From an uncultured Candidatus Saccharibacteria bacterium (GTDB lineage: Bacteria; Patescibacteriota; Minisyncoccia; Phycocordibacterales; UBA2100), in contig CAZPGE010000005.1 of assembly GCA_964586255.1 (NCBI GenBank), forward strand, positions 12,775 to 76,774: a stretch of DNA of 64,000 nucleotides, read 5' to 3'. Made by a program: the position numbers and the translations under genes. The notes under the pieces are model-generated. The model ran no database searches and was not told the DNA's origin. It saw nothing but the letters and a program-made list of their open reading frames with translations. The first letter of the stretch is position 1, and each line of letters opens with the position of its first letter. Shown here piece by piece: positions 1 through 62,897 of this stretch.

Positions 1-716
1 TTCACCTCGTTTTGATACAACGTTATCTTCGCGTCTTTGAGCGCGACACCTGCTGCGCGCTTGCCCCACGATTCGACGGTGCGGATAGGGACCAGTGCAC
101 CGCCTTCCTCTACTACTTTGTGGCCGAGTTCGCGAAGCCATGCGTATCCGTCGCCGGTCGAACCTGTCTCCGGATGAGACTTGCCACCCGTCGCAAGAAT
201 GTAGGAGCGCGCTCGAATGGTGCGAGAGCCCTTGAGCTCCAGCTGGTCTATACGACCGTCCTTGATGATGACTTTTTTTACCGGTGCATTGAGCATTACT
301 TCGACACCACTCTCTCGCATGTAATCTACAAGCACGTCCCATACTGCATGCGCCGTGTTTGCGAGAGGAAAAACGCGCTGTCCGGCTTCCTCTTTGGTCG
401 GCATGCCGCGTGTGTGGAAAAAGTCGAGTGTGTCTTTGACCGCAAACTCCGAGAAAGGGGAGAAGAGGAATTTACCGCTCTCTTTAAATTTCGCGAGCAA
501 CATCCGGGTGTCGAGCTCCGCATTTGTTACGTTGCATCGGCCGCCACCGGTGATGAGGAGCTTGCGGCCGAGCGATGCGTTCTTCTCGAGCAGGATGACA
601 CGAGCGCCACGCTCTGCCGCGCGTCCAGCGGCCATCATACCGGCGGGGCCGCCGCCTATGACCACCACGTCCCATTCGCCGGCCGGCGAATCCTCTGGCT
701 GAGCGCTTTTTCTCAT
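1..716 (-). CDS. NAD(P)/FAD-dependent oxidoreductase, HI0933/BaiN-like flavoprotein (5'-truncated by window; start codon at 714-716)
   Basis: Minus-strand translation reads MRKSAQPEDSPAGEWDVVVIGGGPAGMMAAGRAAERGARVILLEKNASLGRKLLITGGGRCNVTN..., with a GxGxxG FAD-binding motif and the HI0933 signature TGGGRCNVTN. The listed + strand ORF 12..737 is its antisense shadow. Confidence 0.7.
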   Translation of the reverse strand, partial: MRKSAQPEDSPAGEWDVVVIGGGPAGMMAAGRAAERGARVILLEKNASLGRKLLITGGGRCNVTNAELDTRMLLAKFKESGKFLFSPFSEFAVKDTLDFFHTRGMPTKEEAGQRVFPLANTAHAVWDVLVDYMRESGVEVMLNAPVKKVIIKDGRIDQLELKGSRTIRARSYILATGGKSHPETGSTGDGYAWLRELGHKVVEEGGALVPIRTVESWGKRAAGVALKDAKITLYQNEV

Positions 717-834
717 GCGGCCATCCTAGCAGTTTGACAGGCTAATAGCTATATGCTACTATCTCTCCACCAACGTTCTCACCCGTTTTTGTCTTGAGGC
801 TTCTCAGGACCGTCCCGAAAAGTCGAAAGAAGGG

Positions 835-2157
835 ATGATGAAAGCTTCGAGACCGCTGGATTACTTAGCCCCTCTGGGGCACCAGCATATAGTCATGAAT
901 CATAGAAAGTTTAGCCCCCGTCAGGGGAGCAGGCCGTCTTCGTACGGCTCACGTCCAAGTCGCTCGGGCAGTGCGAGCGGTTATCAGTCACGCGGTAGTT
1001 CGTTTAGGCCATCCGGTCGCTCCGGCGGACGCGGAGGCCGCCCGGCACACGCCGGTCAGCGCATTGATGTGTCGCGCTTTATCAACAAAGCGGTCGTCAC
1101 CGAAGTCGAGCAGAAGTTTGTCCCGCAGCACCGCTTTGCGGACTTCCTCATCGATGAGACTCTCAAGACCAACATCATAGCGAAGGGCTATGAGACACCG
1201 ACACCGATACAAGACCGTGCGATACCGCACGCGCTTTTGGGGCAGGATGTCGTAGGCATCGCCAACACCGGTACCGGCAAGACCGCCGCATTCCTCATCC
1301 CGCTCATCAACAAGGTTTTGAACGACCGTAGTGAGCGCATACTCATCATGGTCCCGACGCGAGAACTCGCCGTACAGATTGAAGATGAGTACTGGGGCTT
1401 TGCATCGCATATGCGCATGGGCGCGGTGACATGCGTCGGTGGTGCGAACATCAATCGTCAGATTGCGACACTTCGTCGCAATCCAAACTTCGTCATCGGT
1501 ACGCCGGGGCGTCTCAAGGATCTCATGGAGCGCCGCGCGCTCGACCTCTCGAAATTCTCGACGGTCGTGCTCGACGAGGCTGACCGCATGCTCGACATGG
1601 GTTTCATCGCCGACATGCGTTTCATCTTGAGCCAGATGCGGGATGAAAAGCAAACACTCTTTTTCTCTGCGACCATGTCGCGCGACATCGAGAAGCTTAT
1701 CGGCGATTTCCTGAAAAATCCTGTGTCCATCTCGGTCAAGACAGGTGACACGGCAAAGAGTGTCGATCAGGACATTGTGCGCACTGCGGGCAAGAACAAG
1801 ATAGATGTCTTGCATGAATTGCTCACACAGCCCGATTTCTCCAAGGTTATCGTCTTCGGGCGCACCAAGCACGGCGTCGAGAAGCTCTCGAAGCTGCTCT
1901 CAGACCGCGGATTCAAAGCAGAATCTATTCACGGCAACAAGACGCAAGGGAAGCGCGAGCGTGCACTCGGTGCATTCAAGAAAAATCAGATACAAGTACT
2001 CGTCGCGACAGATGTCGCTGCGCGCGGTATAGACGTCGATGACGTATCACATGTCATCAACTACGACATCCCGATGACGTACGACGATTACGTGCACCGC
2101 ATTGGTCGTACTGGCCGCGCAGGGAAGGGAGGCAAAGCACTCACCTTCATCGACTAA
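835..2157 (+). CDS. DEAD-box ATP-dependent RNA helicase with an N-terminal RG/S-rich low-complexity region
   Basis: Q-motif and motif I (PTPIQ, ANTGTGKT), motif II VLDEADRML, SAT, and HRIGRTGRAG motif VI. Confidence 0.9.
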   Translation: MMKASRPLDYLAPLGHQHIVMNHRKFSPRQGSRPSSYGSRPSRSGSASGYQSRGSSFRPSGRSGGRGGRPAHAGQRIDVSRFINKAVVTEVEQKFVPQHRFADFLIDETLKTNIIAKGYETPTPIQDRAIPHALLGQDVVGIANTGTGKTAAFLIPLINKVLNDRSERILIMVPTRELAVQIEDEYWGFASHMRMGAVTCVGGANINRQIATLRRNPNFVIGTPGRLKDLMERRALDLSKFSTVVLDEADRMLDMGFIADMRFILSQMRDEKQTLFFSATMSRDIEKLIGDFLKNPVSISVKTGDTAKSVDQDIVRTAGKNKIDVLHELLTQPDFSKVIVFGRTKHGVEKLSKLLSDRGFKAESIHGNKTQGKRERALGAFKKNQIQVLVATDVAARGIDVDDVSHVINYDIPMTYDDYVHRIGRTGRAGKGGKALTFID

Positions 2158-2159
2158 GC

Positions 2160-2187
2160 AAAAAAGGCACCGAAAGGTGCCTTTTTG
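2160..2187. terminator. Rho-independent terminator (bidirectional-looking)
   Basis: aaaaa GGCACC gaaa GGTGCC ttttt directly after the helicase stop. Confidence 0.6.
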
Positions 2188-2300
2188 ACGGGGCTTGCGC
2201 TTTCCTGAAAGAAAGTGCATAGTATCGCCATATTAGCCCAGAGATATCGCTTGAGGTCAAGCCAAAAGCTATATTTTAAGCCGTTATTTAGCCCGATTAT

Positions 2301-3989
2301 ATGAAAAAGCTCATCGTTTCCGCAGTCGCACTCGTAAGTCTTCTCGGTGCCTCAGTCGCATCAGCACAGACGTATTACTCTACCGGTACATATGGTGCAT
2401 CCTACGGATATGCCAACTGTGCGGGACTCACGCGAGATCTCTCCGTGGGCATGCGCGGAAGCGATGTATCTTCTCTCCAGAGCTTTCTCATCAGCCGTAA
2501 CTATCCGGGCGGTGGTAACTGGATGCTCACGGGCTACTTCGGCCGCGCGACGCAAGCTGCGGTGCAGAATTTCCAGCAGGAAAGGGGATTGCCACGAACA
2601 GGAATTGCTGACGCTGCGACCCGCGCTGCGATCTGTGGCGGTTCAGTCGTGAATCCATTCCCGACCTACCCGACCTATCCTACGCCGACATATCCCACAT
2701 ACCCGACATATCCGACCTACCCTACGTATCCTACGTACCCATCGGCCGTGACCATCACGTCGCTCTCGACGAATTCTGCAGCGCAGAATTCACCGGTCAC
2801 CATCTACGGTACGGGATTCGATTACAACACCAATACGGTGTACGTCGGCTCTATACCTCTTACAAATATTTCTTCGAGCAACGGAACGTCACTGAGCTTT
2901 ACGGTACCTTCGTACCTCACGGGCTCGGTACAGGTCTACGTGTCTAACTCGCGCGGGCAGAGCAATGCAGTCGCGCTCTCGGTAGTCCCATATGCCACTC
3001 CGTGCGGCACCTACCCATATTCGACCAACTGCAACACGTGCACGTACCCATACACGAACTGCCCAAGCGGTCAGCTCTCGATTCAGTACCTTTCGCCGAC
3101 GAGCGGTGCGGTAGGTACCTCGGTGACCATCTATGGCACGGGCTTCAGCTCGACGGGCAACACCGTGCGCTTCGGCCAAGGCATTATCTCGGGTATCAGC
3201 TCATTCGATGGTCGCTCACTCTCGTTCACCGTTCCGTCGCAACTTACCGGATTTGGTACGCAGAGCATCATGCTTGCAACCTACAATGTTTCGGTCCAAA
3301 ACAGCGCAGGGTATACGAGCAATGCACTGCCGTTTACGGTGACATCGCTTGGCTCTGTCGGCGCGCCGACAATCTCGAGCGTCTCAGGTCCCTCGACACT
3401 GGGTACGGGCGTAACGGGCTCATGGACGGTCCAGATCTACAACACACCGCAGAGTTACACCAACAATGTCACCGTCTCGGTCATATGGGGCGATGAGAAT
3501 CTGTACGGCGCACAAATCTCTCCGGTCCAGACTTCATACGCGCAGGGTAGCCAGACATTCACCTTCACTCATGCGTACGTACAGTCGGGTACGTATACAG
3601 TAAGATTTACGGTCACCAATGCCTCGGGCCAGACCAACAGCACGACAGCGACCGTCGTCGTGTCCGGCTCTAGCTCGGGCTCGCTCTCGCTCTCTTCCGC
3701 GACACCGTCTTCGGGTCGCGTAGGGACTCAGATTGTCCTCACGGGAAACGGCTTCAATGCCACCGACAACACCGTGTACTTCGGTGTCGGCGGTACGCAA
3801 CACCTTCCGTCGGTAAATGGCAACGTCATCTACTACACGATTCCGCAGTATGTTTCTCCGTGCGACGTCGTCACTTCTGGTCAGGTCTGCGCACAGTACT
3901 TCCAGCAGGTCACGCCAGGTGCGTATCAGCTGTACGTAAAGAACGGCACTGGTACAACCAACGCACTCACGTTTACGGTCACCCAATAA
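2301..3989 (+). CDS. Secreted cell-surface protein: signal peptide, PG_binding_1-like domain, TYP nonapeptide repeats, multiple IPT/TIG-like domains
   Basis: MKKLIVSAVALVSLLGASVASA signal peptide; peptidoglycan-binding-like LQSFLISRNYPGG...GYFGRATQAAVQNFQ; (P)TYPTYP x9; repeated VTIYGTGF...NTV(Y/R)FG blocks typical of IPT/TIG domains. Confidence 0.75.
   Translation: MKKLIVSAVALVSLLGASVASAQTYYSTGTYGASYGYANCAGLTRDLSVGMRGSDVSSLQSFLISRNYPGGGNWMLTGYFGRATQAAVQNFQQERGLPRTGIADAATRAAICGGSVVNPFPTYPTYPTPTYPTYPTYPTYPTYPTYPSAVTITSLSTNSAAQNSPVTIYGTGFDYNTNTVYVGSIPLTNISSSNGTSLSFTVPSYLTGSVQVYVSNSRGQSNAVALSVVPYATPCGTYPYSTNCNTCTYPYTNCPSGQLSIQYLSPTSGAVGTSVTIYGTGFSSTGNTVRFGQGIISGISSFDGRSLSFTVPSQLTGFGTQSIMLATYNVSVQNSAGYTSNALPFTVTSLGSVGAPTISSVSGPSTLGTGVTGSWTVQIYNTPQSYTNNVTVSVIWGDENLYGAQISPVQTSYAQGSQTFTFTHAYVQSGTYTVRFTVTNASGQTNSTTATVVVSGSSSGSLSLSSATPSSGRVGTQIVLTGNGFNATDNTVYFGVGGTQHLPSVNGNVIYYTIPQYVSPCDVVTSGQVCAQYFQQVTPGAYQLYVKNGTGTTNALTFTVTQ
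2651..2740 (+). repeat. Tandem 9-nt coding repeat (ACNTAYCCN)n encoding (TYP)n
   Basis: Sequence read: ttcccgacctacccgacctatcctacgccgacatatcccacatacccgacatatccgacctaccctacgtatcctacgtacccatcg. Confidence 0.6.
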
Positions 3990-19754: not shown

Positions 19755-20297
19755 ATGGTGAGAACGCTCTACAACCTCTTAATACCAATTCTTATTGCTG
19801 CTATGGGAATGTTCCTGGGCTCCTGGTTGCTACTTCAGTATTCGCAGGCGCAATTAGTGATGTATACGGACGGGTATTATCAAAATATGGATGAGGTGGC
19901 CATCGGCGAGTTCTATATAGTGAACGAGGGTAGAGAGGTTGATGAGAACGTGACCGTGGCAATAAACAAAGAAATTGAGAAGGACGAATTGACCATCAAT
20001 TATACTCGCTCGAATTGGAATGTTGAAACGAAAGACGGCCTGACCTATATCAATTTTGAGCAGATCAATCCCGCGGAAGGGATAGAAGTGCTATTTAAAC
20101 TTGCCGCGGGTGATGCAAGCTTTAAAGTCGAGGACTTTACCAGCAAGTCTGGAAACACCTATATCAGACCGTGGATTGAGCCTTGGTGGTATTTCACAAG
20201 ATTACAGCTGGCGCTCATTTTCTTTTTCCTTACGATTGCGTTCGGCTTCGGATTTGTCATAGGACTATGGAAGAATGACGTACTTAGAATTCGCTGA
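19755..20297 (+). CDS. Hypothetical membrane protein (N- and C-terminal TM helices, central soluble domain)
   Basis: Hydrophobic termini; 3-nt gap after the SET gene. Confidence 0.5.
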   Translation: MVRTLYNLLIPILIAAMGMFLGSWLLLQYSQAQLVMYTDGYYQNMDEVAIGEFYIVNEGREVDENVTVAINKEIEKDELTINYTRSNWNVETKDGLTYINFEQINPAEGIEVLFKLAAGDASFKVEDFTSKSGNTYIRPWIEPWWYFTRLQLALIFFFLTIAFGFGFVIGLWKNDVLRIR

Positions 20298-21490: not shown

Positions 21491-21511
21491 ATTTTTGAAT
21501 CCACATGATCT

Positions 21512-22342
21512 CTATAGGAACCTGTCGGATGACGTCCCTGACTTAATGAGCGAGCGATAGAGGAAGGGGAATCGAAGTCGGTCGAGCTCAAGAAAATATA
21601 CTTCCGCAGGTTTTTCGGGTGAGCCACCGACACCGAAAGCGACGTAGACAGGGATACCTGTTTGTTTCTGGTAGTCCTCGTAGCGCATTTGCTGTCCCAT
21701 ATTCCACCAAATACCCTGGCCACCGTTTGGCTGCCACGCCCATTTCCCGCGCCACTTACATTCAATGGCAAATACCTTACCGCTTTGCACGGAACGAAAT
21801 ACAAAATCAGGATGGCCGTCCGATTCCACTCGGCGCTTGATATGCTTCCCCGTGTCGCGCGTTCGGTCCTGTATGGTGAAATCTGATTCAGGAAATAGCG
21901 TCACGATATAATCCTCAAACCGAGTGCCTTTTTTGTATGAATCTGTCGCCCAGTATGTCGCATAAACAACGCCCGCGATGGTCAGAATATCCAATATCAC
22001 CCAAATCTCACGAGGGAGTGAAAAATAGGCAAAAGGATTAAACAGCGCAGCCGTGAGTGCGCTCGCGAGCGCGATTTTCTTGTTGCCAAGTTGTAGAAAG
22101 AGAATCGATAGAGCGCCAAAGATGCCGAAGGCGGCTAATCGGAGAGCGTAGAAGTTCTCGCTTATACCAGTAGCGGCAATGAAGAGAACGATCGCAACGC
22201 AGCCTGCGCCTATACGCACGCTATAGATTAGATTTTGCGTCGCAAACATGAAGAAATCATACCACCGGCAAATAGACCAAAATAGGAGAGAAAGGTCATT
22301 TGTGCTAGGATGGTCCGGAAGGTCGTTCCCCTTAGTAGCCAC
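21512..22342 (-). CDS. Membrane protein with C-terminal PD-(D/E)xK nuclease-like motif (NERD/restriction-endonuclease-like fold), GTG start
   Basis: Three or four N-terminal TM helices; C-terminal GHPDFVFRSVQSGKVFAIECKWRG (PD...E.K). Confidence 0.5.
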   Translation of the reverse strand: MATKGNDLPDHPSTNDLSLLFWSICRWYDFFMFATQNLIYSVRIGAGCVAIVLFIAATGISENFYALRLAAFGIFGALSILFLQLGNKKIALASALTAALFNPFAYFSLPREIWVILDILTIAGVVYATYWATDSYKKGTRFEDYIVTLFPESDFTIQDRTRDTGKHIKRRVESDGHPDFVFRSVQSGKVFAIECKWRGKWAWQPNGGQGIWWNMGQQMRYEDYQKQTGIPVYVAFGVGGSPEKPAEVYFLELDRLRFPFLYRSLIKSGTSSDRFL

Positions 22343-51594: not shown

Positions 51595-51676
51595 ACTGCG
51601 GCTCGCAGTCGATAAAGGAGGAGGAAATCAACAGGCGGCGCCCTCATGGGGCGCCGCCTTGGTACAATAGATACAC

Positions 51677-52702
51677 ATGAAGAGGCGCAGGAACATACAG
51701 TCTCCTCTTTCGCGTCCCGGTGTCCCTGTAGTGCTCGCTGTCGCGGCGTTTATGCTACTCGTTGGCACAGCGAGTGTATACGGCGTGCAGTCGCGCGGCT
51801 CCATGCTTGCTGCAGCGGCGGGCGGTGGTCAGTGCGAACCAAAATTTAAACAGTGCATGCAGCAGGATGTGCCGAAGAAAAAAAAGACTGCAGCGCAGTG
51901 CGAACAAGAATTCCAAAAGTGTGTTCTTGTCGACAATAAATGTAAAGACAAGACGGGGATTTCTGGAGGGCAGACCTGCAACAAAGCGCCGGACTGCCAG
52001 ACGCATTGCACTGAATCGGCGACCGGCAAGGGTGCAATACTTGATTGTTGCAAGGGAGGCGCAAAGCATGTGAATTCATGCCCGGATGAAGTAGATGGAA
52101 AGTGTAATCCGCAAAAAAAGGAACTGGGCAAGGAAGGTGAACAGAAAGGAGGGATGCCGGAACTTCCCAAGCCACCTGAATCAAAAGATGGGGGAGGAGG
52201 TCAGCCGCAACAGCAGCCGTGCGGCACAGACTCAAAGACTCCTGGAGTAGCCCCCGCTGAGGGTGGCGAGAAGAGAAAGGATTGCCCACCGGAGACAAAA
52301 TCGGGAGTCTCGGGTTTGTTCGACATGTTTTCTCCGAGCGGAGAGGGGGGCGCATCTTCGCCGAGAGATACGGTATCCTCGGCACTGAGCAAAATTAGCT
52401 CCTTTTTTGGCGGCTCGCAGTCCAGTTCTGAATCCGCTACCAGCAATGAAAACACATCGTCCTCTGGGACCGCAAACACGGGAGGTACAACTGACAATAG
52501 CAGTGTAGTTTCAAGATTGAGTGCACAAGAATCGACGCAAGGCCAGTCTGGGTCGGGCACGGGAGGAAGTACTCAGCAAAACTCTCTTACGACAGGATTT
52601 ACCAATGCGGGGGCAGGGCAGAGCTCGCCACAGTCTACGACGATTCTCAGCTCGGTTGTCACTCGATTGAAATCGGCCCTCTCGTGGCTCAGCGGGCTCT
52701 AA
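51677..52702 (+). CDS. Secreted cysteine-rich protein with Ser/Thr/Gly-rich C-terminal half, hypothetical
   Basis: Signal anchor; about 16 Cys in CEPKFKQCMQQ...CKDK...CNKAPDCQTHC...CCKGG...; TACAAT 8 nt upstream; AT-richer than its surroundings. Confidence 0.55.
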   Translation: MKRRRNIQSPLSRPGVPVVLAVAAFMLLVGTASVYGVQSRGSMLAAAAGGGQCEPKFKQCMQQDVPKKKKTAAQCEQEFQKCVLVDNKCKDKTGISGGQTCNKAPDCQTHCTESATGKGAILDCCKGGAKHVNSCPDEVDGKCNPQKKELGKEGEQKGGMPELPKPPESKDGGGGQPQQQPCGTDSKTPGVAPAEGGEKRKDCPPETKSGVSGLFDMFSPSGEGGASSPRDTVSSALSKISSFFGGSQSSSESATSNENTSSSGTANTGGTTDNSSVVSRLSAQESTQGQSGSGTGGSTQQNSLTTGFTNAGAGQSSPQSTTILSSVVTRLKSALSWLSGL

Positions 52703-52765
52703 GTTTTTCTAAAGCATTCCACATGCGGCGCCACGAATGTGGCGCCGCGCTGGTATGATTGGGCT

Positions 52766-55700
52766 ATGTCGAGCCTCGCAAGGCTATTCTTTCTTGTACT
52801 CATCAGTACATCTTTTTCGCTCCCGGGAAATGTGGCTGCGCTTTCGGCTGAGGCGAATGCGATGTGCAAGCCATACATCGCGGAGTGCCCGTGCAATCAG
52901 GTGCTGAATAAATGGAGGTTCATGCCCGGTCAGCCGAAGTGTAAGGCGGGTGGAGAGAAAAACGGCGCGGGATATAGCAATACACATGCGTGCAAGGTGG
53001 GTGTATGTAAAGACGTCACAAACGAACACGTGACACAGGGAGTGTGCATTGCGGCCGGGAAATGTGAGGGGAAGCTTGCAGACGACAAACCGGTACAAAA
53101 GACTGACGTGCCGGTGAAAGACGGCGATAAGCCGGTGACCGCTGAGCCGCCGCCTCCGCCATCGGTATCAGACACGGGTGATGTGACAGGTGGCATGCCG
53201 CAGAAACCGGAGGTGCCTGAGACGACTGTGCAAGACCCGACAAAGGACCTCCAGGAGACACCTGACACCGAAACCCCCATCCCGTCCGGCTCTGCGAAGA
53301 GTGTCGAAGATCAGTTGAAGGAAGCGGCAGGCGAGCCGAGTCTCTGGGAAAGGTGGTTTGGAGGTGAAACTACGCCGAAGCCGGAGACTCCTGCACAACC
53401 GGATGCTCCAGTGGGGCTCGACGGGCAGCCAGTGCAGACACTCCAGCCCGACGCAGTAGCCGACCCGCAATTGTCAGACACGGGAGTCGTTCAGACTCAG
53501 CCGGGAGAATCTACTCACACATTTGGTCAGCCTGAGGAGACCAAAACTGTCCCCGCGGAAGATGCTACGTGGTGGGGTGCGGTAAAAGATACTGCTTCTA
53601 ATGTTTGGGAGGGGGCGAAAGATATTGCGGCGAACGTGCGCGACACAGTGGCGGGCGCGTTTACATCGGATACACCATCGACTCCAAGTATCGGTGAGAT
53701 AGAGATGCCACCGCCGCCGGCGGAAGTGCCGACGTTAGCAGACACGACAACCGGTGGAACACCAGAGCCGGTACCCGCAGGCGCCAGCGCGGAGCCATCC
53801 GCGACGCAACTCAATACACCGGGAAATGTGGGACCAGTGCCGTATGCAGAAGAGCTTTCGAAACTTGGCTTCGGCAATGACTTGCTGGGAAGCAGGCTCA
53901 AAGAATTGAATGGACTTATTCAAAATGGCAATGATCGGATTGAAGCGGGAAATGCGGACCTCACAACGCGAAAAGAGTCGCTCGATGCGCAGTATGCGCA
54001 GCTGAAGAGCGCGTGTGCTGCGAATACGTGCACACAGTCACAAATAGACACATACAAAGAACGAGCAGCTGCGTACGACCGAGATGCAGCAACGCATAAA
54101 AAACTCGCAGAACAAACGAGGGAATACGTCGACTCCGCGAAAGCGATAGCCTCTGCATTGAACAAGCCAACAGACCTCTCTGCGTATACGGGACGCGTGC
54201 CTGATACACCGGAAAATAAGTTTGTGAGCGATGTATCGCGCGCGGCGCTCGGAGAAATATCGAGGCAAGAGGTGAATGCATTCTGGAACGATACGCCCGC
54301 AAGTGACCTGGTGACAGAGAGATCTCGAATCGCGGGGAATGCTTTTGAGGCGGCGACACACAATGTCACTCCATCACAAGTTGCCGACGCGTTTGGAGAT
54401 TCTGCGCGGCTCTCGGATATTCGGAATCAGACTGCAATTACAGCGGCACAGGAGCAGCTTCGACAAATAGAAACGATTCGTTCGGATACGCCGATTAGCC
54501 AGCTCACACCCGAGCAAGCGGACCTCCTCTATAGAGAGCCGCTCATACGCGAGGAGCTCACTCGACTCGAAAGTGAGTCGCAGTCTCGTGCAGAGAGGAC
54601 TGAGAATATCCAACACGCTCTCCGCAACAGTCAGTATGGAGAGCAGCTGGCGCGCGCGCTGACTACCGAACCAAAAACGCCAGTTGAGCGACTTATACAA
54701 GAGCAGCTCTATTTGAAAGCGGCGGAATTATCGCGCAACAACTTCGCCGCCGAATTGCTTAGGAATACGGAGCAAGCACCGACGGGGCTTACGCCGGAAG
54801 ATTATTACATCCCGGTGGATACCGGGAAAAATGTGTACACGGATGGGGCAGCACAAGCGGATAGGCATATCGGAGAATTGACGGGTGCTCTCAAGCCGTC
54901 ACCGGAAACACAGAGTCTCTTAGACCGCGTAAATGGCAACGAATCATTCGGCCGATATGCTCCGCGAGCGCTCGCTGATGCGACAAATTTCATCGCGGAC
55001 TTGCCCGCAAAAGGATTGGAAGCATTGGGTGTGAACAGCACGGTAGCACATGTGGCCAACGGCATTCTCAACCCGGTCAAATGGGGAGCGGCTGCCTATG
55101 ATGCGTACCTCACGCTTTCGGGCAACCCAAGTACAGAGAGAATGCTCAGCGAGTATGGCATGTCGTCTGGAGAGAGGACATTCGCGCGAGTGATGGATTA
55201 CGCGTCGATAGCTGGTGCGGTCGCCCCATCGCGTGCCCTCATGGGTCTTGGGTCGACCAATGAAATCGGTGTTGTGGCCGAATCGTCGCGCGCATTTACA
55301 TTGAGTGATTCGGTCGCGACGAATGCAGCACGTGTAGAATTGCCGGCGCGAGATTTCGGAGCGGGCGCGTATAAGCATGTCGGCGATACGCCGCTTGGTC
55401 CTGTCTATGCGGCCGACACGCTCCCGTCTGTAGCATCGAGGGTTTCAAACACGGAACGGCAAGCCATCGAAGCGCTTAGCGGCAGGTCGCTCACATCTGC
55501 CGACCGCACGATACTCTCGCAAGTGGGACTTGAAGCGCGGCCATACGGAACCGTACAGGCGGAAATAACGAGAGGTGCGGGCGTGGCGCAGATTACCGAA
55601 AGTGTAAACATCCAGCGAACGGCGCTGGTTAACGGCAATGGGGAAGTAGTGGCTGTCCAAAGCCGCGTCCTCGGCTCTGGCGCGGCAAATTTCGATGCAA

Positions 55701-58700
55701 TGGAAAGATTTGCAATCGTTGCAACTCCGGAAAACACAGGAGTATTCGCATCGCTGCGCCAGCAATTCGACAATTGGTTTGGCCGTTCGGAGCCGACTCC
55801 GAGCGCGCGGCCAACGACGGCAGATGCGACACCGTCTTCCGCTGGTGATACGACACCTTCGGCACGCCCCGCCGATACTCCGGCGCTCCTAGAGTCTCCT
55901 CGAGGCACGACTCCATCTCGTACCGCAGACGTGCCTGATGGTGCGGTGCCGACAACTCCTCGAACAGCTGCAACAGACGGGCAAATCAGCGAAATCGGTC
56001 GTCCACAAAATCTCCCAGATGCACCCGCTGCTCCTCGTGATGTCACGCCAGCGAATACGCCTGATGTCCCTGTGGTCCAGACACCCGACGCGCCTCTTGT
56101 ACCCGACGGAGCGCCAGGAGTGATTCCTGCAGAACCTCTTGCCTCTACTTTGCCGACTACTGGATGGAACCCGAGTGAGTCGCTTGCGAGATTCGCGAAA
56201 GCGAGTGTCGTAGCATTTGGTCTTCTTCACAGCCCAGTGTCTCCGCTTGTCGATACGGCCGTAGCCAGAGGTGTATCAGGCGTGCCGGGCACCGTCTCAG
56301 TAAAAGCCTGTCTTTCAGACTGGACGTGTCTTACGCCGGAGACGGGACTCGGTAAGCGATACGAATTGAACAACGTAGGGTCCAATGGCGGGAACAGGAC
56401 CGCATCTGGCTACCAGCCAGGGCCAAAGGACATGCTCATCGCTTCGCAGACATATCCACTCGGCACATATGGAGAGCTATGCAACGGCGGCAGATGCACG
56501 AAGGTATTTGTAGGCGACACAGGCAATTTCAATCAGGCAAAATATCGCTACGCCAAATTTGACCTGCTCCCACAAGTGTCTTCGGTCGTAGGTCCGACGG
56601 CTGCACAGGGGAGGACGACGATGACGTTTACGCCGTATGGAATAGCAAAGGTAGAAGATGCCGCGGCAATTACGCGAGCAATGAACGCGGGGACTGCATA
56701 CCCCGATGCGGTCGCGCAGATACAGAACAAAGTAATTGCATACGCGCCGGGGAAGAGCGTCGAGCCGACAGCTGTAGCACAGGCTGCGCCGCCCGTCCCG
56801 CAAACACCGACGAGAGTCGCAGATATATCGCCCGCAGTACCCGCAAGCCAGCCAGCGGCAGCGGGGGAGCCGCGGTCTGCTGGGCCTCGTACAGCACTTC
56901 CGGCAGAGCTCGACACTTCGACTTGGACCACGAGGCGCATAGTCGATTCTTTTGTGCCGACGAAGACACCGGTACAGGTCGTCGCTGCAGAGCTCGCGAA
57001 TCCTACGGCAGAAATAAATGCGCTTTCATCGGCGCTCGTCGCAGACGGAATCATCCCTCGAGGCTCGACGGTCACTGCGGCCGCGGATGGGACGACGAAT
57101 GTACGAATTCCGAGCGGGGAGGTGCAGACACTCAAGGTAGTGGTTCCCGAAGCACCTGCCAATCTCAATATCACAGCACCGCGTGTCAGTGTCGGCGAGC
57201 TCAGAAAAGTGTACGCGCAGACAAAGAGTCCCGACATAGGCCGGGTGCTCAGGGCAATTGATGAGCGCGGATTCAATACCGTCCCTGACCGCGCATTTTT
57301 GAACAACGACACTCTCAAACAGCTCGTCGGAGTCTTGCGCGACTACGACAGAATGTTCCCCGGTCAGGTGCCTATCATCAATGAATTGAGCGACACTATC
57401 GGGCGCCCCTTCTCTAGCACTCACACATTTGGTCAAGCTATCGACTTCCGTGCGCGCGAGTGGAGCCCGCAAGTGAAAGCGTTGCAGAATATCTTGCTCT
57501 CACATGGGATGGCGACCCCATATTCGCTCTTCCACGGTACCGGCCCGCACTTGCATGCGGACGGGGGAGAAGTGAAAGCCGCGGATGCCTCGAATCTCAA
57601 CATCTCATACAAGACCGCACCGCAATACGCGCTGCACGATGCAGAGGGTGCGCAGGTGGGGAAACAATTCGCGCTCGGTGGACCGAAAGCTGCGCCAGTA
57701 CCGCCGACAAAGGTGGCAACCGCCCCGCTCCCGAAGCCGTCTCCAGCCCAAGTCGCAATCGGTACATTTGAACCACCGGCGCCGACAAGACCCGGCCCCG
57801 CATTTACTGCGGACAATGTGCCGGCCGAATGGAAGCAGTCGCCAATCACTGTGGCGGAAGCGAAGCCTCCCGTTACAGCCCCTGAGCCTGCGGCAGTGAC
57901 CGTGCCTCCTGCGCCAAAGGCGCCTATCGCTAAACCCGCGCCGATTCAGGCTGCGGAGATTGTTCCTGTCCCGAAGCCACGACCAACTGTATCCTCGACG
58001 AAAGTACCTACAGTCACAAAAGCTGCGACTCGCAATGTTCAGCCGAAAGCAAAGAATCAGGTTGCAGTCACGAAGCAGTTGCCCCCTGTAGATACGCGGT
58101 CAGCCGATGAAATCGCAGCGCAGATGCTCGCACTCAACAACAAAGTAGCTGCACAACTGAAGGTTCCGCCCGCCGAAGCGATGCCGAAGCTTCTAGAGAG
58201 AAATACTAAAATTGGCCAGTCTCTGAAGTCCGTGCAGGCTATAAAGAGCGAGCTCGATGAGCTGGCTAATAAAGTAGTGAGTACGTCTTTGAAGTCTCAG
58301 ACACTCTATGACCAGGGCAACACCGCCGCTTCTAAGGTTGAAGGAAACAAAGTCCAACCTCTTTTCCAGCAACTCGTGGCGCATACAAAGCAACTTTCCA
58401 CGGAAGCTCTTACTGAGGCTGATATTAAAGCGGTGCAAGCAGCGGCCGGTCGTGCTAACTCGGCAGCAAATGTACTCGAGGACACCATTCATCCAGACAA
58501 GGTTGTGGGTATCTATATGAACTCGAAAAATCCCGACGGCACGGCAAAGTTTGCGGACCAAGCTGCATTCGTGAAGTACGTAAAGGGGCTGGCGGGGAAT
58601 TTCCGTGGCAGTGTGGCGCAAGTTTCGTCACCTTTGTCTACCAAGATCAAGTCGTATCAAGTGGAGATTGCTTCCAATGACGCTCTCCTCAATCAATCAA

Positions 58701-61700
58701 AGCAGTTGATGGCCGCAAAACTCAATGCGGATAGCTTGGGTGCCAAGTACGCGCTCGAGCAACTTGAAGGACAGAAAGCGACCGACGAGGCGAATGCGAG
58801 AATAGCGGCCCTCCCTCCTATTGCGGGCCTCGAGGACCTCCTCCAGTCGCCGATTGTTTCGCGAGAAGCTCGTGATGTACCGCTTTCAGAACTTTTTTCC
58901 GAGCTGAAGAATGACGTGTTGGCATTTGCACGGGAAGAGCTCGGCTTGTTTGGCGGTCCGGGTTCTGGGGGACGCACTGTCACCGTAGAGGTCGCGCCAT
59001 CGGTAAAAACTCCTGAAGTCGCCCCGGCGAAAGTTGCCGCGGTTGAAGTGCCCCCTGCTAAGAGTGCTCAAGTGCGGCCGGGGAGTGCCGCACCTACATC
59101 CGCCGTACCATCCTATGTGCCGCGCATCGCGCGATTTGGCACGGAACCTGGCACGGGACCAGTCGTGTATTCTACGCCGGCGAATATTCCTGTATTGCAG
59201 GCGCGCATGAATGTGGCGATTAGGCCTCGCAAGCCTGAAATACAAGCGGGAAGCGGAGGGCAAATATCCCCGACGCCGCGGCTCGAACCACTTCCACCGG
59301 TGCCGAGCGCAGAAGCTGCTGCGCTCGCGAGAGAGCAAGCCTTGCGTAACCCAATCGTAGGTACCGATGATTTTGCGAATTTCCCACGGCAAAAACTCGA
59401 GGGAGAGGATGCACTGCTGCAAGAGGCCGCGATTGCCAAATATGTATCAAACAAAGAGCAATTGCTCGATACGTATGAAGCCCATTTTGGTACGAAGGTC
59501 GTCAATCCCGACCTCGCGAGGCTGCTCTTCAGGGATATGGGCTATACGGGAGTCAATTCGGCCGCAGTACAAAAAGTTGTCGCCGACATGACCGACGAGC
59601 TATGGAAACGTGCGCTCGCAAACAACCCTGAAGATTATGTTGTCCTCTACACAGGTTCGGCTGGCTCGGGTAAATCAAGCTCGATAAACAACGTACTTCC
59701 TGAGATGGAGGCACGGGCCGCCGTGATTATGGATGGCACTCTCTCCAACAAGGTGCTCGCCGAGCAGAGAATTGCGGAAGCGCTCGCGGCAGGGAAGCAA
59801 GTTGAAGTCATTAATGTGTATCGCGATCCAGTAGACGCATGGAACAACGGCGTCATCGCTCGTATGAAAGATGCGCAGTCGATTGATGCTGGAAGAGTCG
59901 TACCCATATCGGTATTCGTAATGGGATATAAGCGTTCGATGGAAGTTGTGAATTCATTGCTTACCAATCCGCGTGAGGGTGTGCATGTGAGTTTGATAGA
60001 AAACGTGATTCCCGGCTCACCGAGTGAGATGAGTCCGGAGCGTTTCCAAAGCATCCGGTACTCATCGAGTATAGAGCGAACGATTCGCAACAACACCGCT
60101 GATCTTCTTGGGCGTGGAGAAATCACACCACGGCAGTACGAGGCAATCACGGGTGCGGAAGCGCCAGGCAAGCTCGCGCTCGTCGCCGACGAGCCGATCG
60201 TGCCGGTGGATAGAGAGATTCCATCTCTTACCGAGCCGGTAGCGACTGCTCCGGAGGGCCCTGTCGCGGCACTTTGGACAGGGGATGGTGTCGAGGAAAG
60301 GCTCGCATGGATACGCGGGGTGCCAGAGAGAGTCACATTAGGTCTGCAAAACTCAGTGAACAAAATTCGTGATCTAATTCCAAGCGTACAAGAGCAGACG
60401 TATCTTCCGCCTGCCGTGACACAAGCGGAGGCCGAGAGCCTTGCGCGGATAGAAGGGGCACTTCTCGATATAGACGCACGATTTCCACGGGAAGTACCCG
60501 ACGATGTGCTCGCCACACTTGAGAGAGAGCTGCAGCAGCAGGTGGCGGGGCTGAGACCATCTGAGATTGACACCATCGCGCAAAAAAGTCTCTGGCAGCG
60601 TACGAAAGAATTCTTCTCACCGAGTAAAGAATCGACCGGTGCCGCGGTGCGAGAGCCCGAGCAGCTCCAACTGCCGCTCGATGAGCCCGTACAATCGGGA
60701 CGACCGCAGGTCGATGCTACTCCCGAGCAGGTGCCAACCTCGCGCCAAGGGGAGCTCTTCCCCGAAGAGCAGCTAGAACTGCAATTCCCGACGACGGGGG
60801 ATTATGTTCAGGCGAATCTGCCGCTCGATGAGCCAGCGCAGCCGACTCGAATTCCTGACACACCAATCCAGCGTGAGCTTCCCCTCGAGTCGCCGCTTAC
60901 GGAGACGCAGCTCGAGCTCCCGCTCACTCAGAGACAGCCCGGTCTGATAGAAAGAATTCGCAATCGTATTGTAGGTACGTCGAAACCATCCGTCACCGAA
61001 CCCGTATCAGGTACAAACTATCGATACAATCCCGTCACCGACCGCTTGGAGCCAATCGCTGTCGCGCCATCGCCGGCATCGACACCGAGCCCGGCGCCAG
61101 CCGCGGAATCACGGTCGCTCACCGTGGGAAGTACCGAGGCATTCGGCGGGGCTCTACCGCCAGCAAGCGGGAAAACGCTCGCAGGGAAATTTGGCAGCGC
61201 TTCGTGGGGCACCGCAAAATTCCTGTGTGGTGGATGGAGGCGTGCAGCGTTTTGTGGCGCCGTGGGGACAGGAGTATATCTGACTGCTTCGGGGTCATCG
61301 GACCCAACATCGCCCGCAGCACCTACTGGGGGCAGTCAGCCAGGCACGGTGAGGCCGACGACTGCAGGTACTCAGACACCTACTGCGCCTTCCGCTCCAG
61401 GCACGACCCCTGCCGGCTCCGTATCGAGTCCAGTGACGCCTATACCAACACCGACTCCGACACCGACTCCGACTCCGACACCCGTCCCAACTCCTACGCC
61501 GACGCCGGCACCAGCTCCAAAACCAGGGAATCAACCAGCTCCTTCTCCTGCGCCGGTTCCGACGCCCGTGCCACTACCGAAGCCAAGACCGGACGGAGCA
61601 CCTGCGCCTGTGCCCGCACCGCAGCCTCAGCCGCAACCTGCTCCGGTCCCATCTCCTGCACCGGCACCGTCACCCGAACAGCCAACAAAGTCTGGCTCAG

Positions 61701-62095
61701 GAAGCTCGGCAGGCAGTATCGGGAGCCTGCTTGGCTCGCTCATGAACTATCTCGGTCTTGGAAACAATAGTCAGCCGAAGCCTGCGCAGCAGCCGACGAC
61801 GCCGACCCGAACTCCGACATCAACATCGACACCGACAACGGTAAAGCCGATTGTGTCGCTTGTGCCAAATCCTGCCCGTGTGAAAGCGGGATCGACCGCA
61901 GTGCTCTGGTGGGCAAGCATCGGTACGACAGAGTGCTCCGTATCGGATTCTGAAGGCACTGTGCTTGTGAAAGGTTCTTCGACTGGAAAGGCCACGACAG
62001 CAGCAATACAAGCAACATCAAAATTCACCGTGACCTGCAAAGCTCGTTCTGGCGAAGACGTCCGCGCGGAGACGACCGTCTCGCTCGCTGAGTAG
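52766..62095 (+). CDS. Giant secreted multidomain protein (about 3110 aa): Cys-rich N-domain, coiled coils, 3D domain, LAS-type Zn-metallopeptidase domain, zeta-toxin/CPT-like P-loop kinase domain, PT-repeat linker, C-terminal Ig-like domain
   Basis: One uninterrupted ORF. Signal peptide MSSLARLFFLVLISTSFSLPGNVAA starts at 52766, with TATGAT 6 nt upstream. The 3D-domain motif YGELCNGGRCTKVFVGDTGNF...FDLL is near 56.45 kb. The LAS motif STHTFGQAIDF (H-x6-D) ...HGTGPHLHADGG (H-x-H) is near 57.4-57.56 kb. Walker A VLYTGSAGSGKSS then AVIMDGTL is near 59.65 kb. (PT)n runs 61.44-61.52 kb. Confidence 0.8.
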   Translation: MSSLARLFFLVLISTSFSLPGNVAALSAEANAMCKPYIAECPCNQVLNKWRFMPGQPKCKAGGEKNGAGYSNTHACKVGVCKDVTNEHVTQGVCIAAGKCEGKLADDKPVQKTDVPVKDGDKPVTAEPPPPPSVSDTGDVTGGMPQKPEVPETTVQDPTKDLQETPDTETPIPSGSAKSVEDQLKEAAGEPSLWERWFGGETTPKPETPAQPDAPVGLDGQPVQTLQPDAVADPQLSDTGVVQTQPGESTHTFGQPEETKTVPAEDATWWGAVKDTASNVWEGAKDIAANVRDTVAGAFTSDTPSTPSIGEIEMPPPPAEVPTLADTTTGGTPEPVPAGASAEPSATQLNTPGNVGPVPYAEELSKLGFGNDLLGSRLKELNGLIQNGNDRIEAGNADLTTRKESLDAQYAQLKSACAANTCTQSQIDTYKERAAAYDRDAATHKKLAEQTREYVDSAKAIASALNKPTDLSAYTGRVPDTPENKFVSDVSRAALGEISRQEVNAFWNDTPASDLVTERSRIAGNAFEAATHNVTPSQVADAFGDSARLSDIRNQTAITAAQEQLRQIETIRSDTPISQLTPEQADLLYREPLIREELTRLESESQSRAERTENIQHALRNSQYGEQLARALTTEPKTPVERLIQEQLYLKAAELSRNNFAAELLRNTEQAPTGLTPEDYYIPVDTGKNVYTDGAAQADRHIGELTGALKPSPETQSLLDRVNGNESFGRYAPRALADATNFIADLPAKGLEALGVNSTVAHVANGILNPVKWGAAAYDAYLTLSGNPSTERMLSEYGMSSGERTFARVMDYASIAGAVAPSRALMGLGSTNEIGVVAESSRAFTLSDSVATNAARVELPARDFGAGAYKHVGDTPLGPVYAADTLPSVASRVSNTERQAIEALSGRSLTSADRTILSQVGLEARPYGTVQAEITRGAGVAQITESVNIQRTALVNGNGEVVAVQSRVLGSGAANFDAMERFAIVATPENTGVFASLRQQFDNWFGRSEPTPSARPTTADATPSSAGDTTPSARPADTPALLESPRGTTPSRTADVPDGAVPTTPRTAATDGQISEIGRPQNLPDAPAAPRDVTPANTPDVPVVQTPDAPLVPDGAPGVIPAEPLASTLPTTGWNPSESLARFAKASVVAFGLLHSPVSPLVDTAVARGVSGVPGTVSVKACLSDWTCLTPETGLGKRYELNNVGSNGGNRTASGYQPGPKDMLIASQTYPLGTYGELCNGGRCTKVFVGDTGNFNQAKYRYAKFDLLPQVSSVVGPTAAQGRTTMTFTPYGIAKVEDAAAITRAMNAGTAYPDAVAQIQNKVIAYAPGKSVEPTAVAQAAPPVPQTPTRVADISPAVPASQPAAAGEPRSAGPRTALPAELDTSTWTTRRIVDSFVPTKTPVQVVAAELANPTAEINALSSALVADGIIPRGSTVTAAADGTTNVRIPSGEVQTLKVVVPEAPANLNITAPRVSVGELRKVYAQTKSPDIGRVLRAIDERGFNTVPDRAFLNNDTLKQLVGVLRDYDRMFPGQVPIINELSDTIGRPFSSTHTFGQAIDFRAREWSPQVKALQNILLSHGMATPYSLFHGTGPHLHADGGEVKAADASNLNISYKTAPQYALHDAEGAQVGKQFALGGPKAAPVPPTKVATAPLPKPSPAQVAIGTFEPPAPTRPGPAFTADNVPAEWKQSPITVAEAKPPVTAPEPAAVTVPPAPKAPIAKPAPIQAAEIVPVPKPRPTVSSTKVPTVTKAATRNVQPKAKNQVAVTKQLPPVDTRSADEIAAQMLALNNKVAAQLKVPPAEAMPKLLERNTKIGQSLKSVQAIKSELDELANKVVSTSLKSQTLYDQGNTAASKVEGNKVQPLFQQLVAHTKQLSTEALTEADIKAVQAAAGRANSAANVLEDTIHPDKVVGIYMNSKNPDGTAKFADQAAFVKYVKGLAGNFRGSVAQVSSPLSTKIKSYQVEIASNDALLNQSKQLMAAKLNADSLGAKYALEQLEGQKATDEANARIAALPPIAGLEDLLQSPIVSREARDVPLSELFSELKNDVLAFAREELGLFGGPGSGGRTVTVEVAPSVKTPEVAPAKVAAVEVPPAKSAQVRPGSAAPTSAVPSYVPRIARFGTEPGTGPVVYSTPANIPVLQARMNVAIRPRKPEIQAGSGGQISPTPRLEPLPPVPSAEAAALAREQALRNPIVGTDDFANFPRQKLEGEDALLQEAAIAKYVSNKEQLLDTYEAHFGTKVVNPDLARLLFRDMGYTGVNSAAVQKVVADMTDELWKRALANNPEDYVVLYTGSAGSGKSSSINNVLPEMEARAAVIMDGTLSNKVLAEQRIAEALAAGKQVEVINVYRDPVDAWNNGVIARMKDAQSIDAGRVVPISVFVMGYKRSMEVVNSLLTNPREGVHVSLIENVIPGSPSEMSPERFQSIRYSSSIERTIRNNTADLLGRGEITPRQYEAITGAEAPGKLALVADEPIVPVDREIPSLTEPVATAPEGPVAALWTGDGVEERLAWIRGVPERVTLGLQNSVNKIRDLIPSVQEQTYLPPAVTQAEAESLARIEGALLDIDARFPREVPDDVLATLERELQQQVAGLRPSEIDTIAQKSLWQRTKEFFSPSKESTGAAVREPEQLQLPLDEPVQSGRPQVDATPEQVPTSRQGELFPEEQLELQFPTTGDYVQANLPLDEPAQPTRIPDTPIQRELPLESPLTETQLELPLTQRQPGLIERIRNRIVGTSKPSVTEPVSGTNYRYNPVTDRLEPIAVAPSPASTPSPAPAAESRSLTVGSTEAFGGALPPASGKTLAGKFGSASWGTAKFLCGGWRRAAFCGAVGTGVYLTASGSSDPTSPAAPTGGSQPGTVRPTTAGTQTPTAPSAPGTTPAGSVSSPVTPIPTPTPTPTPTPTPVPTPTPTPAPAPKPGNQPAPSPAPVPTPVPLPKPRPDGAPAPVPAPQPQPQPAPVPSPAPAPSPEQPTKSGSGSSAGSIGSLLGSLMNYLGLGNNSQPKPAQQPTTPTRTPTSTSTPTTVKPIVSLVPNPARVKAGSTAVLWWASIGTTECSVSDSEGTVLVKGSSTGKATTAAIQATSKFTVTCKARSGEDVRAETTVSLAE

Positions 62096-62124
62096 CGTAT
62101 GGGGAGAAATGATATAATCGCCAC

Positions 62125-62316
62125 ATGGATGGGTATATGAGAAAGTTTGGTGAGGGAGAACGTCGACACCCCAGAAGGAAGCCTCCAGAGGCGCCAAAGC
62201 CGCCCAATTTTGGGAATATGGCTATAGAGGGGCTCAGGAGGGAGGCAGAGAAGAAAAAGTCTGCCGAGGATGGCGAAGATACAGAGAAGAATCCAGACCA
62301 GGAAAAGGATTCGTAA
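62125..62316 (+). CDS. Small charged hypothetical protein (63 aa)
   Basis: TATAAT (62113-62118) 6 nt upstream; disordered composition. Confidence 0.25.
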   Translation: MDGYMRKFGEGERRHPRRKPPEAPKPPNFGNMAIEGLRREAEKKKSAEDGEDTEKNPDQEKDS

Positions 62317-62318
62317 AT

Positions 62319-62897
62319 GTGTTACTATTTTCGTATATGACAGGAATCTACATTCTTATAGGCGCAGTCGCAGTAGCGGCTCTGTTTCTCGTCTGGGCGT
62401 ACAACAGATTTGTACGGCTCACAAATCGTACCGAGGAGGCATGGTCGGACATTGATGTACAGCTCAAGCGCCGCTATGACCTCATTCCGAATCTCGTCGA
62501 GACGGTAAAGGGATACGCATCGCACGAAGCGGGCACACTGCAAAAGGTGACTGAAGCTCGCACAAAGGCAATGGGTGCACAGACAGTCGCTGAACACGCA
62601 GAGGCAGAGAATATGCTCACAGGAGCACTCAAGTCACTCTTCGCGGTGTCCGAAGCATACCCAGACCTCAAGGCCAATTCCAACTTCGTTGAGCTTCAGC
62701 GCGAACTTTCCGATACGGAGAACAAGATTCAGGCTGCGCGTCGCTTCTACAACAGTGTCGTCATCGAGCTTCAAAATGCACTTGAGTCATTCCCGACCAA
62801 TATTGTTGGCAAGATGTTTGGATTCACGACTCGTGAGTTCTTCGAGCTCGGAGAAGGTGAGCAGGAAGCTCGCAATCCTGTGAAGGTCAGCTTCTAA
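62319..62897 (+). CDS. lemA: LemA-family protein
   Basis: GIYILIGAVAVAALFLVWAYNRFVRLTNRTEEAWSDIDVQLKRRYDLIPNLVETVKGYASHE... Confidence 0.85.
   Translation: MLLFSYMTGIYILIGAVAVAALFLVWAYNRFVRLTNRTEEAWSDIDVQLKRRYDLIPNLVETVKGYASHEAGTLQKVTEARTKAMGAQTVAEHAEAENMLTGALKSLFAVSEAYPDLKANSNFVELQRELSDTENKIQAARRFYNSVVIELQNALESFPTNIVGKMFGFTTREFFELGEGEQEARNPVKVSF

Follow-up and report, generated by a model that had tools for sequence, protein, structure and literature searches.

The question that this locus raises is whether a toxin–antitoxin (TA) module is concealed towards the 3′ end of a very large gene, or whether a toxin-like kinase fold has been put to another use there. The window, that is, the whole stretch of 64,000 nucleotides (nt) analysed here, comes from contig CAZPGE010000005.1 of an uncultured Candidatus Saccharibacteria bacterium. 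On its plus strand, which also carries every motif and domain of the protein discussed below, lies an open reading frame (ORF) of 3118 amino acids (aa) at 52739..62095, hereafter the giant. An original prediction, made from the sequence alone, had placed in it a P-loop kinase module of the zeta-toxin or chloramphenicol phosphotransferase (CPT) type. We find that the domain, at aa ~2209–2472 (59363..60154), is a zeta-toxin-superfamily kinase with the block-swapped topology of the Neisseria gonorrhoeae toxin ng_zeta1, as seen in its fold, the order of its motifs and its invariant catalytic residues. We conclude that the kinase locus is not a TA module. The reading that we prefer, with even confidence and by analogy with characterized relatives, is that the giant would be an exported effector directed against the wall synthesis of another cell, carrying a UDP-sugar kinase module and no antitoxin.

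The kinase fold and the order of its motifs

Zeta_toxin (PF06414) was the only Pfam family to exceed its curated cut-off (22.3 bits), scoring 30.7 bits with the whole protein and 38.1 bits (E=1.5e-9) with the excised piece, in an alignment that starts at aa 2323 and covers positions 92–173 of the 199 in the profile. When the single domain sequence was compared with the PDB, it retrieved ng_zeta1 (6EPH) alone, and weakly (E=0.045), whereas a profile of 30 family sequences matched 6EPH with E=2.6e-16 over residues 20–266, which represent the entire kinase domain; the same profile matched PezT over the P-loop only (E=0.14). An AlphaFold2 model of the domain, built from the family alignment, reached a mean predicted local distance difference test score (pLDDT) of 93.4 and a predicted template modelling (pTM) score of 0.89. 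Foldseek placed three ng_zeta1 entries on top for this model, 6EPH being matched with E=2e-10, a template modelling (TM) score of 0.78 and a root mean square deviation of 2.9 Å over ~270 columns. The TM score to 6EPH normalised to the target is 0.57, and identity with ng_zeta1 is 17%. Zeta (1GVN/3Q8X), PezT, AvrRxo1 and polynucleotide kinases followed far behind (TM about 0.3–0.47). Matches of this strength cannot be put down to chance.

The zeta-toxin half of the original prediction is thus borne out, the CPT half is not: neither CPT nor AAA_33 reached E≤1 in Pfam, and CPT structures were missing from the top 50 fold matches. Comparison of Zeta_toxin with other NTP-binding families, which had been proposed as a check, left Zeta_toxin alone over its cut-off; in particular, no adenylate-kinase-like family or structure ranked higher, and none was among the top 50 fold matches. 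Scans of the domain against PHROGs and NCBIfam gave nothing useful. The range first given for the module, 59350–60100, covers it except for the last two helices, and its placement near the C-terminus, although right in that the domain lies in the C-terminal part, is loose, as ~640 residues follow. No C-terminal oligonucleotide/oligosaccharide-binding (OB) fold of the ng_zeta1 kind was found: the match ends at residue 266 of the 401 of 6EPH, and the ~400 aa after the domain are without a Pfam match. In known proteins, this OB-fold domain is confined to the gonococcal and Eikenella homologues (PMC5923241).

The string that had been taken for the Walker A motif, DYVVLYTGSAGSGKSSSI, corresponds to aa 2299–2316 (nt 59633–59686) and includes the P-loop GSAGSGKS (59654..59677), whose K2312 (nt 59672–59674) is the counterpart of ng_zeta1 K115 and zeta K46. 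It is followed by AVIMDGTLSN (aa 2328–2337, nt 59720–59749), K2312 and D2332 being 20 residues apart, and then by the expected conserved Arg and Asp positions (59816..59905), comprising R2362 in the sequence YRDP, next to D2363, and R2375 and R2386, the three arginines being equivalent to ng_zeta1 R164, R175 and R181. What does not stand is the interpretation of this spacing as the zeta/PezT arrangement, from K46 to D67. Because Pfam aligns only aa 2323 onward, at profile positions 92–173, AVIMDGT has to be equated with E116-G-T of zeta and not with the D67 motif; VIMDGT (59723..59740) is the end of the Walker-B-like strand, and D2332 takes the place of zeta E116 and ng_zeta1 E133. The catalytic Asp lies upstream, in the block NPDLARLLF (59504..59530), where D2258 (nt 59510–59512), 54 residues ahead of the P-loop K2312, corresponds to ng_zeta1 D56 and zeta D67. 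The canonical collinear order, with the catalytic Asp ~21 residues after Walker A, is therefore absent, and the order found is that of ng_zeta1, in which two sequence blocks are swapped as compared with streptococcal zeta, so that the catalytic Asp56 comes before the P-loop Lys115 (Rocker et al. 2018, PMC5923241).

The column pairs of the family profile and 6EPH agree with these assignments (D59/D56, K113/K115, D133/E133, R176/R175 and R187/R181, profile position first). The behaviour of zeta itself, examined with a sequence identical to 1GVN over 271 residues, lends modest support to a block swap. In its native form, zeta aligned with the family profile over the P-loop alone, both in hhalign and in hmmsearch; once residues 61–110 had been moved before residues 31–60, the score was 18.7 as against 11.7 bits and the alignment became collinear through E116 and R158 (paired with R2375), albeit without capturing the Asp block itself.

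In the characterized enzymes the catalytic Asp (zeta D67, ng_zeta1 D56) deprotonates the sugar hydroxyl, and ng_zeta1 binds the phosphates of the UDP-sugar through R175 and R181 and reaches the sugar substituent with K59 and N75 (PMC5923241). D2258, G2309, K2312, D2332, R2362, R2375 and R2386 are invariant in 150 cluster representatives of the family, and R2261, in the position of K59, is Arg in 94% of them. The counterpart of N75 is uncertain, two alignments with 6EPH differing by up to six positions, and N2422, within an I-D/E-N-S motif, is invariant in the family without an assigned ng_zeta1 counterpart. Since all residues known to matter in ng_zeta1 are present, the domain is probably active, and its sequence points to an intact, ATP-dependent small-molecule kinase. 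The module is under strong purifying selection. Three full-length orthologues of the giant were available for comparison, P0003 (3245 aa), P0004 (2895 aa) and P0005 (4523 aa), and the kinase region is the best-conserved portion of the protein (49–56% identity over 390–480 aa); apart from it, the M15-like region described below and both termini, little can be aligned.

The domain thus shares its fold and its block order with ng_zeta1 (epsilon1/zeta1 system; 6EPG/6EPH/6EPI; PMC5923241), together with counterparts of D56, K59, K115, E133, R164, R175 and R181, but it lacks both the OB-fold and an epsilon1 gene. Moreover, ng_zeta1 is a free 401-aa plasmid toxin, whereas here the kinase is an internal module of a chromosomal, signal-peptide-bearing protein of 3118 aa. 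With the UDP-N-acetylglucosamine (UDP-GlcNAc) 3′-kinases zeta of pSM19035 (1GVN/3Q8X) and PezT (2P5T) it has in common PF06414, the P-loop, the Walker-B acidic residue with its G-T, the Arg residues and a D-x-x-K/R block. The two enzymes differ from it in the order of K46 and D67 and in having an epsilon/PezA partner; their TM scores are 0.34–0.47, and collinear sequence alignment with zeta extends over the P-loop only or over the C-terminal half only.

A family of polyvalent proteins and the antitoxin question

An exhaustive profile search yielded 3245 clusters, made at 50% identity, at E≤1e-3, of which 1025 at E≤1e-30. A word-indexed protein search retrieved just two relatives with the domain, and none at E≤1e-10 with the whole giant. 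Among the 150 best representatives, 127 of 164 domain matches lie at the very C-terminus of the protein, and the median protein length is 866 aa. Several members have the composition of polyvalent proteins, such as P0014 (ADP-ribosyltransferase, MuF and zeta), P0110 (zeta, ddrB-ParB and LPD38) and P0090 (GNAT and zeta), and the best viral structure matches are Caudovirales proteins of 766–1114 aa. The Caudoviricetes genome MW202577 (39.6 kb) encodes an 878-aa member among large, mostly unannotated genes, one of them annotated as structural. In an element of ~41 kb, the genes before that of an 893-aa member encode a tail-fibre/collar protein and a metallo-endopeptidase/endolysin-like protein of 813 aa. 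A 40.7-kb contig binned in a ‘Candidatus Peribacteria’ metagenome-assembled genome and several IMG/VR viral genomes (L003/L010/L013/L014) appear to represent this one element, since all have an identically matching zeta-kinase gene; it is probably a phage genome, possibly that of a phage of a candidate phyla radiation (CPR) host. When an alignment of four sequences was searched against metagenome and viral contigs, no further giant orthologues were found, only phage-type relatives (35%).

A zeta kinase as one module of a huge multi-effector protein is already known (Iyer et al. 2017, PMC5512222), and for the zeta-toxin-like kinases of polyvalent proteins a wall-weakening role in DNA injection or conjugation has been proposed. 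Like the giant, such proteins unite in one huge chain a zeta-like kinase with peptidoglycan-targeting and other effector modules, and have no antitoxin. The same multi-domain character is seen here in the combination of an M15-like module with the zeta domain, in P0003 in that of Amidase_2, M15_3 and zeta, and in P0005 in that of DEAD, Zn_peptidase and zeta. In contrast to polyvalent proteins, the giant is chromosomal, is not part of a recognisable phage or conjugative element, and has a predicted Sec signal, a putative hydrophobic anchor towards the C-terminus and an end that is perhaps Ig-like. Accordingly, the domain superfamily, the ng_zeta1 topology and the logic of fusion are known; what sets this copy apart is its place in a CPR chromosome, with conserved synteny, together with its Sec signal and putative membrane anchor. 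No paper joining zeta toxins to CPR bacteria or Patescibacteria was found among the top-ranked full-text literature matches.

Family scans of the neighbours of the giant revealed no antitoxin-like match and no adjoining epsilon/PezA-like gene, as had been anticipated. The single candidate that had been put forward as a possible antitoxin was a small basic ORF of 63 aa just downstream (62125..62316, plus strand), for which family scans gave no match. It has homologues in three related loci (L002 13925–14104; L016 15821–16015; L015 16335–16628), with the consensus M-EG..RKYGEGEKRHPRRRK...FG..S.DALRK; in all three, the small gene sits between LemA and an M48 peptidase, and only in the window does it stand ahead of LemA. 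An antitoxin role is consequently unlikely, since in the three related genomes the ORF follows LemA, away from the giant, and the family travels with LemA/M48. An extended -10-like box, TGATATAAT, at 62110–62118, lies just upstream of this ORF and ends 7 nt short of its ATG (62125); a transcript starting from it would be leaderless and would begin just past the stop codon of the giant. Phage and polyvalent members of the kinase family end with the kinase, no partner being seen in the contexts examined. The locus has neither a bicistronic small antitoxin gene nor a free-standing cytoplasmic toxin, the usual traits of type II TA systems. Framing the domain as half of a TA pair therefore does not fit: it is built into a multi-module giant with a signal peptide, and the gene upstream encodes a secreted low-complexity protein.

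Layout and chromosomal setting of the giant

In the mechanical ORF list the giant begins with GTG, but translation more likely starts from the ATG at 52766. From there runs a predicted Sec-type signal peptide or signal anchor (MSSLARLFFLVLISTSFSLPGNVAALS, 52766..52846, hydropathy scan 1.74), then a Cys-rich stretch. Signal-peptide-like N-termini followed by Cys-rich regions are found in four of four giants, those of the orthologues being textbook-like, with the ends AHA, ARA and TQA. A weakly hydrophobic conserved segment, ASVVAFGLLHSPVSPLV (56201..56251, hydropathy scan 1.49), has counterparts in P0003 (983–1004), P0004 (1356–1379) and P0005 (2069–2094) and, judging from its sequence, may insert into the membrane. 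Shortly after it, the motif NGGNRTASGYQP...VGDTGNF (56384..56530, aa ~1216–1264) tentatively recalls glycan-cleaving RlpA/3D-like proteins with a double-psi beta-barrel (DPBB), through a weak match to PA4485 (4AVR, E=0.26). This attribution is a guess: the putative module has no Pfam match and no relatives among 151 proteins, and a single-sequence AlphaFold2 model of it was unusable (pLDDT 31).

The LAS/M15-type metallopeptidase-like module (aa ~1496–1650, 57224..57688) displays the motifs HTFGQAID (H-x6-D, nt 57422–57445) and HLH (HxH, nt 57548–57556). It falls below the Pfam threshold on its own, but it aligns with residues 1833–2062 of P0003 (E=2.9e-21, 32% identity; jackhmmer E=1e-72), and the aligned part overlaps a Pfam Peptidase_M15_3 domain at residues 1932–1993 of that protein (E=5.4e-8). 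P0003 contains in addition Amidase_2 (MurNAc-L-Ala amidase), and P0005 has a Zn_peptidase and a DEAD-like module; an ADP-ribosyltransferase-like stretch read by eye in P0005 was dropped, being without Pfam or PDB support. Immediately N-terminal of the kinase, aa 2126–2208 (~59114–59362; QARMNVAIRPRKPEIQAGSGGQ, PLPPVPSAEAAA) are conserved among the giants; these ~80 residues might contain a site of processing or have a regulatory function in cis.

After the kinase, an acidic, Pro-rich linker (60700–61150, aa ~2655–2800) carries the short repeats LPLDEP, QLELQFP, ELPLES and QLELPL. It is succeeded by a Gly-rich hydrophobic segment, AAFCGAVGTGVYLTA (61244..61288, hydropathy below 1.2), which is preceded by WRR. 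Counterparts exist in P0003 (3042–3063) and P0004 (2643–2663), with basic residues on the N-side in four of four giants; the segment is a putative membrane anchor, and its charge bias suggests that the N-side is inside. Following a Pro/Thr-rich linker, the protein closes with a conserved beta-rich domain (61841..62080), perhaps Ig-like, which is 32–36% identical to the C-termini of P0003, P0004 and P0044, that of P0005 being unmatched. A weak match to Big_2 (E=0.16) is the sole Pfam trace of Ig-like character.

The locus is chromosomal DNA of a CPR bacterium. Its neighbours encode RNase J, an SBP_bac_5 binding protein, GroEL and LemA and, farther off, Ddl, GlmS, MetK and BipA. The order SBP_bac_5, GroEL, secreted protein, giant and LemA is kept in four genomes, the syntenic loci being those of P0003 (GCA_041643055.1), P0004 (GCA_040960315.1, GCA_040960175.1) and P0005 (L002). 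The LemA-family gene downstream (62319..62897, plus strand; Pfam LemA E=9.6e-61) is syntenic in L002, L015 and L016/17. The gene upstream of the giant (51677..52702, plus strand) specifies a Cys-rich, low-complexity protein of 341 aa with a signal peptide and no Pfam match. Its counterparts of 300–380 aa (L016 5117–6040, where it overlaps the start of the giant, and L015 4767–5900) are 18–27% identical to it and have little in common beyond a C-terminal W-L-x-G-L motif; this protein may be a partner of the giant. The nearest contig is that of Parcubacteria group bacterium Athens0416_74, with 95% aa identity in the domain and 83–84% nt identity at the ends of the gene. Between the window (53743–59102) and L001 (1549–7402), the central ~5.4–5.9 kb cannot be aligned by blastn, the N-terminus and the kinase being kept; in L001 the giant gene looks split (ORF 545..3496, then a second frame).

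Promoter and terminator scans at the ends of the giant gene were uninformative. A strong GC-rich hairpin of 11 bp (51633–51659), which separates GroEL from the gene for the secreted protein, probably serves as the terminator of GroEL. Elsewhere in the window, a complete MmeI-type restriction-modification enzyme with all five MmeI Pfam domains (16522–19347) overlaps the start of a low-GC stretch (18000–22000; 0.46–0.48 compared with ~0.55 elsewhere), which suggests a horizontally acquired island. Other putative wall-associated proteins are encoded at 2301–3989 (PG_binding_1, TIG and PKD) and 5791–7437 (GH18 glycosidase and PG_binding_1).

Where the kinase may act

By analogy with zeta/PezT and with the 4′-kinase ng_zeta1, the kinase would phosphorylate UDP-GlcNAc and/or UDP-N-acetylmuramic acid (UDP-MurNAc) to dead-end metabolites, and wall synthesis would thereby be blocked. 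The giant would leave the cell via Sec, its hydrolase modules would breach the wall of a second (host) cell, and in the cytoplasm of that cell the kinase would stop wall repair, much as proposed for polyvalent proteins. An antitoxin would not be needed, because Sec would export the domain in unfolded form and the cell attacked would belong to a different species. The link to the wall comes from the fusion of the domain to the M15-like module here and to Amidase_2 and Peptidase_M15_3 in P0003. An active copy in the cytoplasm would be toxic to the producer itself, since the latter encodes its own Ddl and GlmS. The Xanthomonas type III effector AvrRxo1, a zeta-fold NAD kinase (4Z8Q–4Z8V), provides a precedent for a zeta-fold kinase delivered against another organism; it differs in its fold similarity (TM ~0.46), in its substrate, in its dedicated type III secretion system and in having a cognate partner, AvrRxo1-ORF2. 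One may go further, though only tentatively, and imagine the giant as the host-attack device of an epibiotic CPR bacterium: after Sec export and cutting of the wall, the hydrophobic segments would enter the host membrane and the kinase would pass to the cytoplasm, draining UDP-GlcNAc and UDP-MurNAc and blocking repair at the attachment site. The protein would then be an antitoxin-less inter-species toxin that had been taken over from CPR phages and had become fixed chromosomally.

Several points weigh against an effector that acts on another cell. Substrate and phosphorylation site are deduced at 17% identity to ng_zeta1, ATP and UDP-sugars are absent outside the cell, and the route into the target cell is only proposed. 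The domain is internal, with ~640 aa after it, unlike that of most family members and of classical C-terminal polymorphic toxins. The window contains no secretion-system or host-contact genes, and the second, DPBB-like hydrolase module is not established. Finally, WRR stands before the C-terminal hydrophobic segment in all orthologues, which under the positive-inside rule places its N-side in the cytoplasm, and there is a further hydrophobic segment in mid-protein; the two together would therefore put aa ~1172–2835, including the kinase, in the cytoplasm of the producer. The topology of the giant is ambiguous.

This last point leads to the most serious competitor, which we nevertheless hold to be rather improbable, namely that the giant is a multi-pass membrane protein with the kinase on the cytoplasmic side of the producer, where it would throttle the cell's own UDP-GlcNAc/UDP-MurNAc pool, bringing about growth arrest, regulated autolysis or contact-triggered wall remodelling under the control of the extracellular parts. 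An arrangement with N-terminus out, loop in and C-terminus out would fit the K/R residues on the N-side of the C-terminal segment in all four giants as well as the mid segment, and the Pro/Thr linker and Ig-like C-terminus, which look extracellular, would be outside. ATP and UDP-sugars occur only in the cytoplasm, and the Ddl and GlmS of the producer show that the target pathway is present. The same cytoplasmic segment would, however, hold the M15-type peptidase, plus Amidase_2 in P0003. Enzymes of the M15 and Amidase_2 families usually work outside the membrane, where the assembled wall is their substrate. Furthermore, both hydrophobic segments of the window protein are weak, as their hydropathy values indicate, and no inhibitor or regulator was seen; an unregulated active zeta kinase has been lethal in every tested case (PMC5923241), which also counts against a self-directed enzyme. 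Somewhat less probable still is a kinase of the right fold with another substrate (NAD, a nucleic-acid 5′-OH, another nucleotide-sugar or a second messenger), in which case poisoning of the wall would be the wrong inference. The low identity to ng_zeta1 would allow this, as would the presence of the polynucleotide kinase PNKP and AvrRxo1 among the fold matches, the invariant N2422 without an ng_zeta1 counterpart, the shifting placement of N75, and the DEAD-like module of P0005, which points to nucleic-acid targets. Yet the UDP-sugar kinase ng_zeta1 leads both the fold and the profile matches by a wide margin (TM 0.78 vs ≤0.47), the two phosphate-binding arginines and the basic residue by the catalytic Asp are conserved, and wall hydrolases recur as fusion partners or neighbours of the domain.

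That the giant gene belongs to the cargo of a phage or conjugative element integrated here, encoding a classical polyvalent protein delivered with the DNA, appears quite improbable. Most family members are of the phage/polyvalent type, and the centre of the gene is hypervariable between relatives that are 84% identical. The flanks, however, are housekeeping genes (GroEL, RNase J, SBP_bac_5, LemA and Ddl), the order GroEL–giant–LemA recurs in four genomes, and N-terminal signal peptides have not been described for polyvalent proteins; integrase, terminase, portal and type IV secretion system genes were not found among the window ORFs scanned, and neither the giant gene nor a surrounding stretch of 22 kb had a megablast match in plasmid and phage collections. 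We give the least credence of all to a classical type II TA system in which the 63-aa ORF at 62125..62316 would restrain the zeta domain. The ORF is real and conserved, always lying within ~1.5 kb of the 3′ end of the giant, and the ng_epsilon1 antitoxin is itself small, binds in extended form and is without recognisable homologues. Even so, in three of the four genomes LemA separates the ORF from the giant; in the known zeta systems the antitoxin gene precedes that of the toxin (PMC5923241), whereas this ORF is downstream and without a family match; thousands of members end with the domain and show no such partner in the contexts examined; and a cytoplasmic antitoxin would be unable to act on an exported domain. 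An exported effector with a UDP-sugar kinase module, used against the wall synthesis of another cell, accordingly stays our preferred account, at the level of confidence given at the outset.

As regards the family, the block-swapped topology of ng_zeta1, described in 2018 from proteobacterial plasmids, turns out to be that of a very large group of ~3,200 clusters, mostly phage tail-module and polyvalent proteins, of which the Pfam Zeta_toxin model covers only the C-terminal half. How the ultrasmall CPR bacteria and Patescibacteria exploit their host cells is largely an open question, and their giant proteins are mostly unannotated. The present locus gives one such CPR giant a confidently assigned enzymatic module, beside wall-cutting modules. 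Should the kinase indeed act on the host, it would offer a concrete molecular handle on the interaction between epibiont and host, and would represent a TA-type toxin used across species without an antitoxin.

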